The notes: generated by a model not told the origin, from the sequence alone. 52,090 nt of DNA from Patescibacteria group bacterium (GCA_041645215.1 JBAZQK010000001.1:1-52090); one strand, 5' to 3'; shown: positions 3,641 to 33,855, counted from the stretch's first letter. Translations and numbers: made by a program.

Positions 3641-3729
3641 CTGCACTCAGCATTGGCTGAATGGGCCTTAAAACTATACGCCGCACCTATCAAAAGACAT
3701 GTACAGAATATAATTTAAGCTAAGTACAG
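3641..3729 (-). other. 23S expansion in domain I (~275)
   Basis: Stem CTGCACT/AGTACAG enclosing ~75 nt in a normally short variable helix. Confidence 0.55.
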
Positions 3730-3771
3730 TTTGGGCTGTTCCCGGTTCGCTCGCCACTACTACGGGAATTT

Positions 3772-3829
3772 TTGGTTTAATAACTACCATCCACCAAAGC
3801 TTTAGCGTGTCTGGTAGTAACTAAACCAA
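3772..3829 (-). other. 23S hairpin expansion near position ~220
   Basis: Stems TTGGTTTA/TAAACCAA and ACTACC/GGTAGT between GGGAATT and CGGTGTTTTCTTTTCC. Confidence 0.65.
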
Positions 3830-4143
3830 TTCGGTGTTTTCTTTTCCTCTGGGTACTTAGATGTTTCAGTTCCCCAGGTTACCTTCATAACCCTATGTAT
3901 TCAGATTATGATGTTACGATCTTCCATCGTAACGGGTTGCCCCATTCGGACATCTCCGGATCAAAGGTTGCTTGCCACCTCCCCGAAGCTTTTCGCAGGC
4001 TGCTACGTCCTTCATCGTCATTCCATGCCAAGGCATCCACCATTTGCACTTGTTGCGATTTAACCACAAGAATGAATACTTAATATTCATCTTTTACTAA
4101 TAATTGTTCGTATAACTTTGCTTGATTTATATTTACCTATTCA

Positions 4144-6545: not shown

Positions 6546-6905
6546 ATGAAAACAATACTAGTAATTTATGAAGACAGTCTAACCAGTAAGGTAATTGAAA
6601 GAACCTTACAAAAAAACAATTATGAAATCGAGAAAGTGCAAATGTCTGACTTAAGTCTCGACCAACATTCTAATCCAGATCTCATAATAATCGAGTTACC
6701 AAAAATAATCGACATGGGGATAAAACTGGTAAAGATGATAAAAGAGACCAAATCTTCAATTAAAATACTAATAACTTCAGCTCACAACCAGTCTGACATA
6801 GACAAGGCAAAACAGGAACTAGGCCTAAATATAGAAATCATCCAGGCTCCTTGGTCAAAAAATGACTTTCTGTCGCTAGTCAAAAAAATGATTAAAAAAA
6901 AATAA
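6546..6905 (+). CDS. Stand-alone atypical receiver (CheY-like) domain protein
   Basis: Pattern ILVIYED...PDLIIIE...ILITSA...APW; the phosphoacceptor Asp is Glu and the conserved Lys is Ala. Confidence 0.65.
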   Translation: MKTILVIYEDSLTSKVIERTLQKNNYEIEKVQMSDLSLDQHSNPDLIIIELPKIIDMGIKLVKMIKETKSSIKILITSAHNQSDIDKAKQELGLNIEIIQAPWSKNDFLSLVKKMIKKK

Positions 6906-30585: not shown

Positions 30586-31215
30586 CTATACCAAATACCG
30601 GGCAACTGGTCGATAACTGCGGCGATGAATGTTGGTAACACCCAATTTAGCCAAAGCGATTTGATGTTGCTTAGTGCCATAGCCCTTATGCTGACTAAAC
30701 CCATAGCCCGAACAGTATTTATCAAATTTCACCATTAAACGGTCGCGATAGATTTTGGCCATAATTGAAGCCAAGGCAATAACAACTATTTTGGCATCAC
30801 CGTGAATAACCGATTTAATTGGTGATTGGTTTATTGTTGGCGGCAACTTGGCAACGTAATCCGCCAAAATATAATTAGGTTTTAATGGTAATTTATTTAC
30901 AGCTCTTTTGACCGCCAATCGATTGGCTGGCCCCACTCCTAGTTGATCAATTTCTTTGTTGCTGACCACTCCCACCGCCCAAGTGATTTTATCTTTAAGC
31001 TGATTAAAAATTTCCTGACGACGCCGCGGGCTTAATTTTTTTGAATCATTGATTAATTCCAACCACGGCGCCACAGCAATCTTGGTTGATTTAGGTAAAA
31101 TAACCGCCGCCGCCACCATCGGCCCGGCCCAGGCCCCGCGACCAACCTCGTCCACCCCGGCAATTAATTTATATCCTTGGCGCCATAATTGTTTTTCCAA
31201 ATATGACAATCTCAT
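30586..31215 (-). CDS. rnhB: Ribonuclease HII
   Basis: AGVDEVGRG..AGP, DSKKL, GDA...IALAS..AK..RD, HKGYGT..H, HRRSY. Confidence 0.97.
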   Translation of the reverse strand: MRLSYLEKQLWRQGYKLIAGVDEVGRGAWAGPMVAAAVILPKSTKIAVAPWLELINDSKKLSPRRRQEIFNQLKDKITWAVGVVSNKEIDQLGVGPANRLAVKRAVNKLPLKPNYILADYVAKLPPTINQSPIKSVIHGDAKIVVIALASIMAKIYRDRLMVKFDKYCSGYGFSQHKGYGTKQHQIALAKLGVTNIHRRSYRPVARYLV

Positions 31216-31268
31216 AGATTATCCCGGTGACTAATTTGCTAAAAAATTTACAACTGAATATTGCATAG

Positions 31269-31733
31269 TTATTTTGAATTATCATCAGCTTTTTGTCCGA
31301 TATATCGTCTAAGTTCTTTTAATGATTGCCTAATTTGATCAATTCTTTGCGGTTCTAATATCATACTAAATTCAACCTCAAGTTTTTTTTGCTTATTTAT
31401 TTTAAACTTTATAAGTTGATCAACCCCGTTTTTATCTATTTCAGCAATAATTCCGTGAGCCATTGCATGTCTTAACTGTACTAATTCTTGAGGAAGGCTA
31501 ATATCGGGGAAATATTCATTAAATTTTTTTGTAATTTCTCCGAAGCTTGAATTGGAAAAAGATTTTGGATAGTCATTATAAATTTTCTTTTTTGTGTACG
31601 GAGGTTTTGGTAATTTATTGATTTCTCTATCTTTTTTCGCGATAGCGCAGCGCATTAAAAATTCAATAGCCATAATGTCTCGCCAAATTTCTCCCAAACA
31701 TTCAAAAAATTTTTTGACTTCGTCTTGGTTCAT
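31269..31733 (-). CDS. Hypothetical protein, HEPN-like
   Basis: Helical; LRHAMAHG fits the HEPN R-x4-H motif. Confidence 0.55.
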   Translation of the reverse strand: MNQDEVKKFFECLGEIWRDIMAIEFLMRCAIAKKDREINKLPKPPYTKKKIYNDYPKSFSNSSFGEITKKFNEYFPDISLPQELVQLRHAMAHGIIAEIDKNGVDQLIKFKINKQKKLEVEFSMILEPQRIDQIRQSLKELRRYIGQKADDNSK

Positions 31734-31805
31734 ATCCTATTTCCAAAAATTTAATTTCTCGCCTTTTACCGTTTTATAATTTACAACTGAATATTGCATA
31801 GTTAT

Positions 31806-32486
31806 TCAAGCGAGAAAACTAATATTACTATTTTTATTAAGATTCAAAGATATCTGTCTAATATTTTCATATAAAAACTCAATGTCCTTGATTAATTCAT
31901 TGATTTTTTCTTGACTGATAATAGAAATAGTTTCTACGCTGTTTTCTTTTATTAAATTTAAATAGCCGTCAAGACTAATGCCTTCAGGAAGAGTTATTGT
32001 CTTTCCTTTGCCATCTATTGTCTGAAATAATTCCAGCTTATCGTAAGGAGATCCTTGAGGATATCGCTCAAATTGATTTTCAATATCACATTTTTTATTA
32101 TCGAGTAAAAACAAGTTCCCAAAAGCGTATTTTTCTATAGTATTTTTTATTGTTTTATTTTCAACACCCGCTTTCTCTAAAAGATCAAGCAAATTATGAT
32201 TTTTGGGAAATTTAGAGTTTGTTATTCCAATAATAGCCTTGAGATAAATTTCAATTCCATGCTTAAAATTAAAAAGGATCGGGAACATTAAATAAACAGG
32301 TTCTTGTGAATAATTTCCATATATCTCTTTGAGGCAATATTCGAGGGGTGAGCCTTCAGCTATGGCAAATTTATTTAATCTTTTACTTAAGATGCGAGCA
32401 CTTATTAAGGCACACTGAAGATAAGATTGGGCGATTATCAACCAATCATACTCTCTTTTATGGTCAAATTTTATTTGTCTGGACAT
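31806..32486 (-). CDS. Hypothetical protein, HEPN-like
   Basis: FPILFNFKHGIEIYLKA...HNLLDL...RYP pattern. Confidence 0.55.
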   Translation of the reverse strand: MSRQIKFDHKREYDWLIIAQSYLQCALISARILSKRLNKFAIAEGSPLEYCLKEIYGNYSQEPVYLMFPILFNFKHGIEIYLKAIIGITNSKFPKNHNLLDLLEKAGVENKTIKNTIEKYAFGNLFLLDNKKCDIENQFERYPQGSPYDKLELFQTIDGKGKTITLPEGISLDGYLNLIKENSVETISIISQEKINELIKDIEFLYENIRQISLNLNKNSNISFLA

Positions 32487-32565
32487 TTAAAAACTTATTT
32501 CCAAGAACTTAATTTTTATCTTGTTATTTTATAATTTACAACTGAATATTGCATAGTCCAAAAAA

Positions 32566-33288
32566 TTACAAACCATAATCGGTATTATTCATCCTATTTC
32601 TCCTATTTTCATTAATTCGATTTTGTTCCATTTGGTGATAAAAATGAGCCGATTTGTTAATAAGAGCTATGTCTTTTTCTATTTCCTGCAAAAGATTTTT
32701 GAGGTTCAAAATAGAAACTATCTCTATAAAGCATTCTCCATTCGGTAAACTAAAAGTATTATCCAGTGCATTTATTCTAATAAGTGCTCCATCACAATTT
32801 TGCTGATTTTTACTATCATCTAAATAAAACACTGTGCCGTCAAAAACTACCAGCAAATAGTACACTCCCACTTGTTGATTATTTTTTCTGAAGGCTCTAA
32901 AAAATTGTAGATTTTGATTTACTGCTTTATACAAAAAATCTCCACTGTCTTTAGATTTAAAAAATTCTCTGTACTTTGCATAAAAATGTGTTTGTTTATT
33001 TCTTTCCATTTCTGAAATATCTGCAAAAGGGATATTATTAGTAATGAGAGTACTTTCAATATCCTCCATCTTGCCTTTCTGGTGTATTCTTGTTGCTTCT
33101 GGAATCGACTTACATTCAACAAATAATATTGCATCATAGTTATGATTATCTTGATGTTTTCGCGCAATAATATCTTTTTCGCGTGGCTTTTGAGTGTTCG
33201 GGTCGGTATAAAAAACTTCAGATGATACTTTCCACCCGTCGTCTTTTAAAATCTTTTCCACTTGTTCTTCTAATGTATTTCCATTCAT
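32566..33288 (-). CDS. Hypothetical PD-(D/E)XK-type nuclease
   Basis: LEEQV..IL...GW.V, REKDIIA, FVECKS. Confidence 0.6.
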   Translation of the reverse strand: MNGNTLEEQVEKILKDDGWKVSSEVFYTDPNTQKPREKDIIARKHQDNHNYDAILFVECKSIPEATRIHQKGKMEDIESTLITNNIPFADISEMERNKQTHFYAKYREFFKSKDSGDFLYKAVNQNLQFFRAFRKNNQQVGVYYLLVVFDGTVFYLDDSKNQQNCDGALIRINALDNTFSLPNGECFIEIVSILNLKNLLQEIEKDIALINKSAHFYHQMEQNRINENRRNRMNNTDYGL

Positions 33289-33310
33289 ATTTTTATTTCC
33301 AAAAACTTAA

Positions 33311-33608
33311 TTTTTCTTTTTTCGTCCTTTTAATAAATCCAACCTCTTGGCGTTTTTGCCGGTAATTACTTTTTGCCATCCGTGGCTTGCATTTTCAGTT
33401 GTCCGATTTTTTCGGACACCTCGCTACCCTCCGCTTTTAGCTTGGTTTTTAGATCATTCCAATATTTTCTTGGTCTATCGGTTTGCGCCAATATTTCCAC
33501 CACATCCATAACGGCAAAATGCCATAATTCTTTTTTCTCGTCCCAAAATCGGCGGATTTGTTTGCCCTCAAAAATTGCTATTGCTTTATTTTTTGAATGT
33601 TTTTTCAT
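33311..33608 (-). pseudogene. Bro-N domain gene with internal deletion and frameshift
   Basis: IAIFEGKQIRR.WD....W.FAV.DVV.IL..T..PRKYWNDLK.KL..EG; stops after ATDGKK; a probable C-terminal tail VITGKNAKRL.. follows in another frame. Confidence 0.8.
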
Positions 33609-33855
33609 ATTTTTAAATTCTATTTCCAAAAACTTAATTTTTCCGATTTTGCCCATTCAATAAACTTTTCCGCCACGCCGCCCGGTCCAAGTTTTTAAAC
33701 TTTGGTATATAGACTAAATCAGTACCAATATTAATATTGATATTCATATTTTTACGAACCAATCATGTAATCAATTTTACACTTATAAACCCAAATAAAC
33801 AATGCCCAAGAACTACGTCTCGGGCATTTTAGCTACAATATTTTAACTAATTTCA

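Follow-up and report, generated by a model that had tools for sequence, protein, structure and literature searches.

The 52,090-nucleotide (nt) stretch of Patescibacteria DNA analyzed here (GCA_041645215.1, JBAZQK010000001.1:1-52090; hereafter the window) holds a minus-strand island of 2.44 kb (33675 to 31245) in which small genes are strung together with two short repeats. One repeat, R1, consists of the last codons of a 677-amino-acid (aa) nuclease-methyltransferase (M) found in related Patescibacteria contigs, and the other, R2, consists of the first codons (MQYSVVNYK…) of a specificity subunit (S) together with about nine conserved bases 5′ of its ATG. Most probably, a restriction-modification (R-M) operon of two genes once had a slot filled with several cargo genes, and the island is what erosion has left of it. 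A tblastn search of the whole genome (G000) finds only M residues 657-677 (33623-33685) and no S, and the remains of both genes in this genome are stubs of 7 to 17 codons.

The Cassette Island and Its Repeats

The island has four minus-strand open reading frames (ORFs), one for a Bro-N fragment of 80 aa and the others for products of 240, 226, and 154 aa. R1 is a 23-nt repeat (GAAAAATTAAGTTTTTGGAAATA) present in four copies on the minus strand (31738-31760, 32496-32518, 33294-33316, and 33621-33643), two of them exact and two with two changes, and it sits 1-16 nt upstream of the start codon of each of the four ORFs. R2 is a 25-nt repeat (ACTATGCAATATTCAGTTGTAAATT) present in three copies without mismatch on the same strand (31245-31269, 31778-31802, and 32533-32557), placed after each of the last three genes. 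The minus-strand order is R1, truncated Bro-N, R1, 240-aa gene, R2.R1, 226-aa gene, R2.R1, 154-aa gene, R2. Neither repeat occurs in the rest of the 1.17-Mb genome, and 0.00 matches to either are expected from dinucleotide-preserving shuffles. Thus, the repeat-bounded cassette array proposed in an earlier, sequence-only reading of the window is real, and its elements stand in the order given there. The same reading had described the region as AT-richer than its flanks and free of an integrase, and both statements hold. The island has 29% G+C against 43% for the genome, with values of 0.28-0.31 over 31200-33000 and of 0.42-0.47 in the flanks. No tyrosine recombinase gene is present in the window, and the two Phage_integrase (PF00589) matches of the genome lie on contig C5 and at C20:79078, the nearest being 45 kb off. 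A promoter scan of the island returned 15 candidates, with 15.1 expected from shuffles, so that there is no enrichment.

Read along the minus strand, the array begins with M-tail stub 1 (33620..33675), the last 17 codons and stop of the nuclease-methyltransferase (…VAEKFIEWAKSEKLSFWK), which contains R1 copy a and whose extension reads GGVAEKFIEWAKSEKLSFWK before the stop. The truncated Bro-N gene of 80 aa follows (33366..33608), recognized from full-length Bro-N proteins of relatives and from PADLOC. M-tail stub 2 (33291..33338) has no preceding S-head stub and keeps about 14 decayed codons, ending …KKEKLSFWK and a stop (R1 copy b), to be compared with the M end GAGTGGGCGAAAAAAGAAAAATTAAGTTTTTGG of locus L092. 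Behind it lies the 240-aa gene (32566..33288), a PD-(D/E)XK-like nuclease candidate by motif and fold matches. Scar J2 (32495..32557) joins at least nine S-head codons (R2) to a decayed M tail, KLSSWK and stop (R1 copy c), and leads to the 226-aa gene (31806..32486), HEPN-like by profile and fold matches. In scar J1 (31737..31802), 12 S-head codons are fused in frame to eight M-tail codons, GEKLNFWK and stop (R1 copy d). The 154-aa gene (31269..31733), HEPN-like by an R88-x4-H93 motif and weak profile matches, comes last, and an S-head stub (R2; 31245..31269), comprising 3 nt upstream and the seven codons MQYSVVN, then passes into host sequence upstream of rnhB. The mini-ORF of J1, MQYSVVNYKTVKGEKLNFWK (31799-31737), is open over 20 codons and stops 3 nt before the next ATG. 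That of J2, which reads MQYSVVNYKITR, a stop, KLSSWK, and a second stop, is broken internally. These junction peptides read exactly as first described.

The R1 copies match different natural M alleles (…SEKLSFWK, …KEKLSFWK, and …GEKLNFWK), which suggests separate donors or acquisitions. The EKLNFWK allele of J1 is the natural allele of genome G361 and of locus L042, and it differs from the allele in stubs 1 and 2.

A Probable Two-Gene Parent Operon

When 400 genomes of the class were searched, R2 turned up in four further families. The 3′ end of full-length M genes reads …DGVAEKFIEWAKSEKLSFWK and a stop, and S genes begin MQYSVVN(Y/L)K…R(I/L)DAE(Y/F)(Y/F). For example, R2 in G361 opens a 488-aa protein, MQYSVVNLGK…RLDAEFY…, in which Pfam detects a type I specificity domain, and in G187 and G064 a protein of 677-711 aa ends …HDGELPDGVAEKFIEWAK(A/S)EHLSFWK and a stop, the M tail to which R1, with the extension of its first copy, corresponds. 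Other M alleles end …SEKLSFWK and a stop, identical to the window copy. Full-length M ending in R1 and full-length S starting with R2 are found in G187, G064, G361, and L092, and stub 1 differs little at the nucleotide level from the end of the complete M genes of L033, L031, and L092. The attribution of the two peptides, in the sequence-only reading, to the C-terminus of an N6-adenine methyltransferase and the N-terminus of its specificity subunit is therefore borne out by full-length genes.

In Pfam, the 677-aa M matches HSDR_N_2 (6.5e-27), N6_Mtase (PF02384, 5e-34), and Eco57I, and S matches Methylase_S (PF01420) over two stretches. M carries the residues D…ExK of a PD-(D/E)XK nuclease at its N-terminus (SADIVIF…VEIKKP), and S is a separate subunit with two target-recognition domains. 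Nothing resembling hsdR (TIGR00348) is found in the genomes G187 and G168, both of which have a complete M, and in G064 and G361 hsdR is on other contigs than M and S. In L032, L033, L092, and L099, neither M nor S has a helicase gene beside it, and in G187 S comes straight after M. Type I R-M shares with this operon an N6-adenine methyltransferase and a two-domain specificity subunit; it differs in that no separate HsdR motor-nuclease stands alongside here. BcgI-type (type IIB) R-M consists of a fused nuclease-methyltransferase subunit and a separate specificity subunit, and its enzymes cut to either side of the recognition site. The parent operon has the same fused subunit and a separate S with two target-recognition domains, and HsdR is absent from two genomes. 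Since a fused M and an S occur without hsdR or an adjoining helicase, the parent appears to be a two-gene system with an architecture nearer to the BcgI type than to classical type I, while PADLOC files M under MTase_I (962 bits, spanning full-length M). What was first called simply a methyltransferase subunit is thus a methyltransferase, but not a plain type I HsdM, being fused to a PD-(D/E)XK nuclease and accompanied in some genomes by S without hsdR. Membership in MADS was considered and rejected: the nearest NCBIfam models, MAD2 and MAD5, score 301 bits against a cut-off of 720 and 142 against 400, respectively.

Cargo between M and S in Relatives

An R2 scan of species-representative genomes gave 45 stretches, which were compared by tblastn and repeat search. 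M and S are directly adjacent in two loci (L033/L066 and L062), where 3-15 nt separate the M stop from the S ATG. In at least 18 loci the arrangement is M-X-S, with X standing for 0.6-3 kb of other genes, and filled slots were catalogued in 21 loci. Where filled, the slot holds one to four unrelated genes of defence or toxin type. Among them are several kinds of ATPase (OLD-family ATPase-TOPRIM, AAA_13, AAA_15/21, and SLFN/AlbA ATPase) as well as DUF3800, DUF4145, DUF6119, Mrr_cat, PDDEXK_3, Fic, RhuM, RhuM-Doc, AbiU2-type HEPN, and several family-less proteins. M proteins that are 90-96% identical nevertheless flank wholly different cargo, so cargo turns over faster than M diverges. The nine bases AAAATAACT are conserved before the S ATG, and consequently unrelated cargo genes stop two bases 5′ of the S start. 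The distance from the M stop to the cargo ATG, on the other side of the slot, varies from 1 to about 20 nt.

Stacks of cargo also occur in intact operons. L092 has three cargo genes, in the order Bro-N, M, SLFN-type ATPase, R1 stub, AbiU2 HEPN, R2 stub, homologue of the 240-aa protein, S, whereas L067 and L068 have two cargo units each. The 240-aa homologue in this M-X-X-X-S operon is 67% identical to the window protein, so that an intact operon with a matching cassette, which the sequence-only reading had proposed to look for, exists. That reading held that genes from a variable M-S slot were collected after the R-M genes had been deleted. The content of the slot does vary by locus, but collection after deletion does not agree with stacks in the intact operons L092, L067, and L068.

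On G361:C34 (L031:7513-10570), a unit that combines the 88 C-terminal codons of M with Fic occurs twice in tandem, the two copies being near-identical. Further cargo and an intact S follow, and the 5′ three-quarters of M (residues 4-507) are on a separate contig, G361:C8. In the viral contigs of IMG/VR, R2 gives only unrelated matches with three mismatches within a phage ORF and neither M nor S, hence no sign of carriage by phages.

Scars and Stages of Decay

Where cargo units meet, the lengths of S head and M tail that are kept differ from locus to locus. Compared with the 12 S-head and eight M-tail codons of J1 in the window, the scar of L074 has 13 and about six, frameshifted; that of L067 has two and 30; that of L068 has none and about 15; and the boundary between the second and third cargo genes of L092 has 12 and none. 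In G361, a copy of R2 stands ahead of a fragment of 88 M-tail codons.

The M and S genes are found at various stages of loss. In L063, M is cut down to residues 1-59 and 642-676; in L048, S has an internal deletion; and in G271, M is missing. In L079, nothing but an R1 stub and about 30 initial S codons (MQYSVVNYKTVKENYDFRIDSEYY…) is left, the M and S bodies being undetected. In L100, M is down to 64 residues from its N-terminus and about 60 from its C-terminus, and S to eight codons fused to its last 30 or so. L100 also retains R1, a homologue of the 154-aa protein (79% identity), and R2. Thus, the two peptides are R-M gene ends and at least one window gene occurs between the same two repeats elsewhere, both contrary to the outcomes that the sequence-only reading had named as refuting it. 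The window appears to be the end of this decay series seen in relatives. The contig of L100 (JAHIHU010000175; L100:2955-6180), like the metagenome contigs L101 and L102, has at a cargo position a 176-aa homologue of IS200-like Y1 transposases (PF01797, 30 bits), whose reading frame opens with the S-head codons MQYSVVN.

The Cassette Genes

In the 240-aa protein, which has no Pfam match, D39 and E58-C59-K60 are invariant among 17 homologues. Its AlphaFold model has a pLDDT of 86, and the best fold matches, to the restriction-endonuclease-like domains of R2 RLE, McrC, AF1548, and MspJI, are weak (E 3e-3 to 0.15, low TM-scores). The 226-aa protein has a sub-threshold Pfam HEPN match of its own (E 0.007), and a member of its family, P0049, exceeds the PF05168 cut-off (24.9 bits against 22). 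The model is helical (pLDDT 86.5) with HEPN proteins as the top fold matches, which are not significant (E at least 0.3). The neighbours of its homologues are Fic genes, Mrr, or an SLFN-type ATPase with an R1 stub (L093), and one homologue lies within a type II R-M system (L096). The 154-aa protein has the motif R88-HAMA-H93 (Rx4H), kept in a homologue in G002, and a weak match to HEPN_RiboL-PSP; its homologues weakly match three HEPN families, with Pfam matches below the cut-offs. More than 100 homologues of the 154-aa protein were found, the one in L100 being the closest for which the context is available, and another is located downstream of S in L099. In G002 (G002:C1, L012:3674-4982), the homologue is paired with a 265-aa trypsin-like protease matching PADLOC PDC-S45 (E 1e-41). 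This pair may be a two-gene defence module, of which the window would keep one half.

The first cassette, listed by the sequence-only reading as Bro-N, does have that identity, but it is not whole: it is an 80-aa N-terminal fragment of a protein that has about 190-280 aa in relatives. Its identity to the corresponding part of complete Bro-N proteins from relatives of the class is 52-64%, its match to PADLOC PDC-S13 covers no more than positions 3-77 of 286, and the gene is probably dead.

Homologues of the cassettes elsewhere are 67-83% identical. Because intact cargo persists without M and S, and because its homologues are found in unrelated contexts, the three genes that are intact most likely encode effectors of abortive infection or defence that act autonomously, rather than effectors guarded by an R-M complex.

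How the Array May Have Been Built

The following route would account for the array. M, with about 75-85% DNA identity between operons, and the conserved S head would serve as homology arms, so that cargo could be swapped between operons. A unit would be added when one end recombines by homology and the other is joined illegitimately, S head (GTAAAAGAA) to M tail (GCAAAA.GAA). A new segment composed of M tail, cargo, and S head would then come to lie beside the resident cargo, leaving S-head::M-tail scars of variable length. At the points where the scars J1 and L074 switch, S head and M tail share G(T/C)AAAAG…GAA. In natural transformation of Acinetobacter and Streptococcus, homology-facilitated illegitimate recombination uses one homologous anchor and a join at 3-10 nt of microhomology to add foreign DNA while resident DNA is kept. 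The S-head::M-tail scars of the window and its left-hand join are consistent with such a process, the likeness being one of junction sequences.

The M and S bodies would have been lost later, by deletions that on the left reached codon 29 of the host gene acpS (holo-ACP synthase) and on the right left seven S codons. A 5′ remnant of acpS of about 29 codons, ending …NLDRAA (33676..33762, minus strand), is recognized by homology to G001, a genome of the same genus. In that genome acpS is intact and encodes 116 aa; the remnant shares 91% identity with its beginning, and the match stops exactly at 33676. At this position acpS switches to the M tail, and the 5 nt CGGCG are common to both parents. 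As stacking is seen in the intact operons L092, L067, and L068, the present orphan state would be the result of later erosion and not of cassette collection after deletion. As for the route by which M and S were lost, erosion of a complete operon in place is slightly favoured over import of a block that had already been trimmed. We infer that homologous together with illegitimate recombination built the array, and that the term integron-like, used in the sequence-only reading, would be apt for the outcome but not for the mechanism.

The stubs may persist since they offer signals for translation. The M tail ends TGGA(A/G)ATA(A/G), which places a Shine-Dalgarno-like GGAG or GGAA 8-16 nt before the cargo ATG. 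In J1 of the window, in L067, and in L092 (as an ATGA overlap), the scar mini-ORF is uninterrupted and its stop lies 0-4 nt ahead of the following ATG. In this case, the M tail would give the Shine-Dalgarno-like motif and the S head a small ORF up to the next start, and the scars could pass ribosomes from cassette to cassette by translational coupling.

A broader proposal is that M tail and S head are portable docking arms of an integrase-free cassette platform, whose units ultra-small bacteria would exchange and stack through homologous and microhomology-mediated recombination of incoming DNA, with arms whose translation signals would allow expression of whatever gene is captured and units that could seed free-standing arrays where no R-M operon exists, such as those at acpS and argS. 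We regard this as tentative and on balance doubtful. If it were true, integron-like stockpiles of defence genes could arise in a second way, by a different mechanism.

Several observations weigh against the reading of the island as an eroded multi-cargo slot, or against parts of it. The internal stop of J2 and the frameshift of L074 indicate that a ribosome relay is not universal. The recombination route is derived from scars, a few dozen junctions in all, and the microhomologies are short, A/T-rich, and possibly coincidental. The 3′ end of M has 67-74% DNA identity against about 75-85% gene-wide, so that no special selection as a docking arm is seen. When the short R2.R1 scar pattern was searched over 241 million metagenome records, only one other element was obtained, and this form of scar is therefore rare; the matches are two contigs, both carrying an argS/RhuM element that is seen also in a contig labelled Altiarchaeales. 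PADLOC and NCBIfam give no matches for the three intact cassette proteins, and the nuclease and HEPN assignments draw on motifs, together with weak matches to profiles and folds. Contig labels are unreliable as well: CAZCCC010000034 (G361) is titled 'uncultured Gammaproteobacteria bacterium' but falls in the Patescibacteria class, and spread of the operon across phyla is therefore not claimed.

Alternative Origins

Integron arrays, including CALIN, are built on attC sites, imperfect palindromes that fold as single-strand hairpins and have a fixed core site, and complete integrons have an adjacent tyrosine-recombinase integrase. The array resembles them in that its genes are short, mostly promoterless, and unrelated to one another, all point the same way, and are rich in toxin and defence types, with a recurring composite repeat of about 63 nt and no adjacent integrase, which is the look of an attC cluster without its integrase. 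A true integron-like system would have R2.R1 as an attC-type site, the M|S junction as attI, circular cassettes, and a site-specific recombinase encoded elsewhere. The conserved end that cargo genes share before the S ATG and the IS200-like Y1 transposase gene fused to an S head in the related array L100 could be cited in its support. However, attC-like folding of the junctions was examined and rejected, as there is no structure beyond shuffled controls: DNA fold z-scores are about -0.7 to +1.4 for both junctions on both strands. Neither a fixed core site nor a common crossover is apparent. The repeat derives from the coding ends of two genes, the scars keep 0-13 S codons and 0-88 M codons depending on the locus, some boundaries have R1 only or R2 only, and the spacing between M stop and cargo start is not fixed. 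Insertion of a circle bearing a composite site would leave a scar, yet single-cassette operons are scarless. In addition, no recombinase gene is found within 45 kb here or in the flanks of the loci examined. This origin is thus improbable. Even less credible are local tandem duplications of a single unit with later divergence of the genes between the repeats. Unequal crossing-over does occur in these loci, as the true tandem duplication of the 88-codon M tail and Fic in G361 demonstrates, but neither sequence nor fold relates the four window genes to one another, the homologues of each, with the identities given above, are separate, and the R1 copies belong to different natural M alleles.

A stronger competitor, although judged less likely than erosion in place, is that the 2.44-kb block came pre-trimmed, as a linear fragment from M tail to S head of a donor array that replaced the 3′ part of acpS and the genes downstream by illegitimate joining at both ends, in which case the site would never have had a complete operon. 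Unlike the erosion intermediates L063 and L100, the window has no remnant of the M N-terminus; its left end is joined at the 5-nt microhomology CGGCG; and G001, of the same genus, has no trace of the operon. Moreover, ectopic cassettes are known from other sites. A RhuM cassette lies ahead of argS, joined at GAAAAAT(T/C)AA, where argS reads GAAAAATTAA, like R1. In L082 (also in L081 and L074), the cassette bears an R1-like stub and an R2.R1 scar and lies immediately upstream of argS, and 174 nt from the 5′ end of argS are repeated on its two sides (2403-2576 and 3670-3843), with about 87% identity. Similarly, a full-length Bro-N with an R1 stub (G060:C34) follows a membrane-protein gene, with a 42-nt direct duplication at L015:6191-6232 and 6765-6806. 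On the other hand, illegitimate joining at both ends is rarer than deletion, many erosion intermediates exist elsewhere, and at the right junction the sequence upstream of rnhB in G001 is unrelated and at a contig end, so that no comparison is possible there. If import of a pre-trimmed block were correct, units running from M tail to S head could colonise sites outside R-M operons. The duplicated 42 nt of L015 are the 3′ end of the membrane-protein gene, both copies encoding …IRKKVYRS and a stop, and a cytosine methyltransferase gene comes next.

Genomic Setting of the Island

The downstream host gene is rnhB (RNase HII; 30586..31215, minus strand; Pfam RNase_HII, E 8e-38). Family relatives keep the order glutamate dehydrogenase (GDH), in some a small gene, rnhB, a methyltransferase gene, a membrane-protein gene, and YraN. 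On this side of the island, the seven S codons run into the region upstream of rnhB. On the acpS side, the order in G001 is dehydrogenase, SDR, the intact 116-aa acpS, and an 824-aa acyl-ligase gene. In that genome (L011:1765-4602), the 824-aa gene is an acyl-CoA ligase/acyltransferase fusion and is followed by an alpha/beta hydrolase. A tblastn search does not find the 824-aa gene in the window's genome, and only the start of acpS is kept, so a small lipid-related gene set seems to have been lost or replaced in this genome. A consensus scan detects a terminator-like hairpin of 11 pairs with a T-rich tail (33801..33828, minus strand) that follows the SDR gene and precedes what remains of acpS. 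The old acpS promoter may therefore be where transcripts of the array begin, without read-through from SDR.

Relation to Known Systems

The embedding of defence genes has been described for R-M, BREX, DISARM, and Hma operons under the term 'guilt by embedding' (Payne et al., bioRxiv 10.1101/2024.01.29.577857). Other examples are PrrC in EcoprrI and the HEPN, RhuM, and Fic genes of R-M operons (PMC3710099), and TgvAB in a Vibrio type I R-M system (PMC11411939). The cargo type of the window and its slot between methyltransferase and specificity genes are alike, and the same families recur (HEPN, RhuM, Fic/Doc, OLD/ABC ATPases, Mrr, and PD-(D/E)XK). The Bro-N fragment and the protease neighbouring the 154-aa homologue in G002 also match 'PDC' candidates of PADLOC. 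Those studies, however, cover intact operons, whereas the window has scars, stacked cargo, and a host operon that has vanished. The words 'recombination' and 'remnant' do not occur in the preprint of Payne et al. (bioRxiv 10.1101/2024.01.29.577857), and our literature search found no account of gene-end scars, of stacking by such scars, or of orphaned arrays. Thus, embedded defence genes are already known, and the scars, the stacking, and the orphaned state are not described in the literature searched.

Another relevant case is Ronin, a derivative of type I R-M that comprises HsdM, HsdS, and the small effector RonA and has lost the nuclease (bioRxiv 10.1101/2023.04.06.535777). As in the window, an R-M locus has been remodelled around an accessory effector and part of the R-M machinery is gone. 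Ronin keeps HsdM and HsdS as the sensor of the effector, but in the window M and S are missing and the effectors stand alone, which argues against a need for the R-M complex. Unlike PrrC and RonA, which are guarded by R-M, the cargo of the orphan array probably consists of autonomous modules.

Embedding in restriction operons is a current heuristic for the discovery of defence genes, and the route by which such genes enter has had no explanation; the scars record each addition. This record points to the building and shuffling of defence stacks without a recombinase in tiny genomes that have few mobile-element enzymes. Searches for M-tail and S-head stubs would reveal defence cargo, including unannotated families, even after the R-M genes have been lost. 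The array suggests that ordinary recombination is enough to bring defence genes together in R-M operons, and that these genes can persist after the operon itself is gone.

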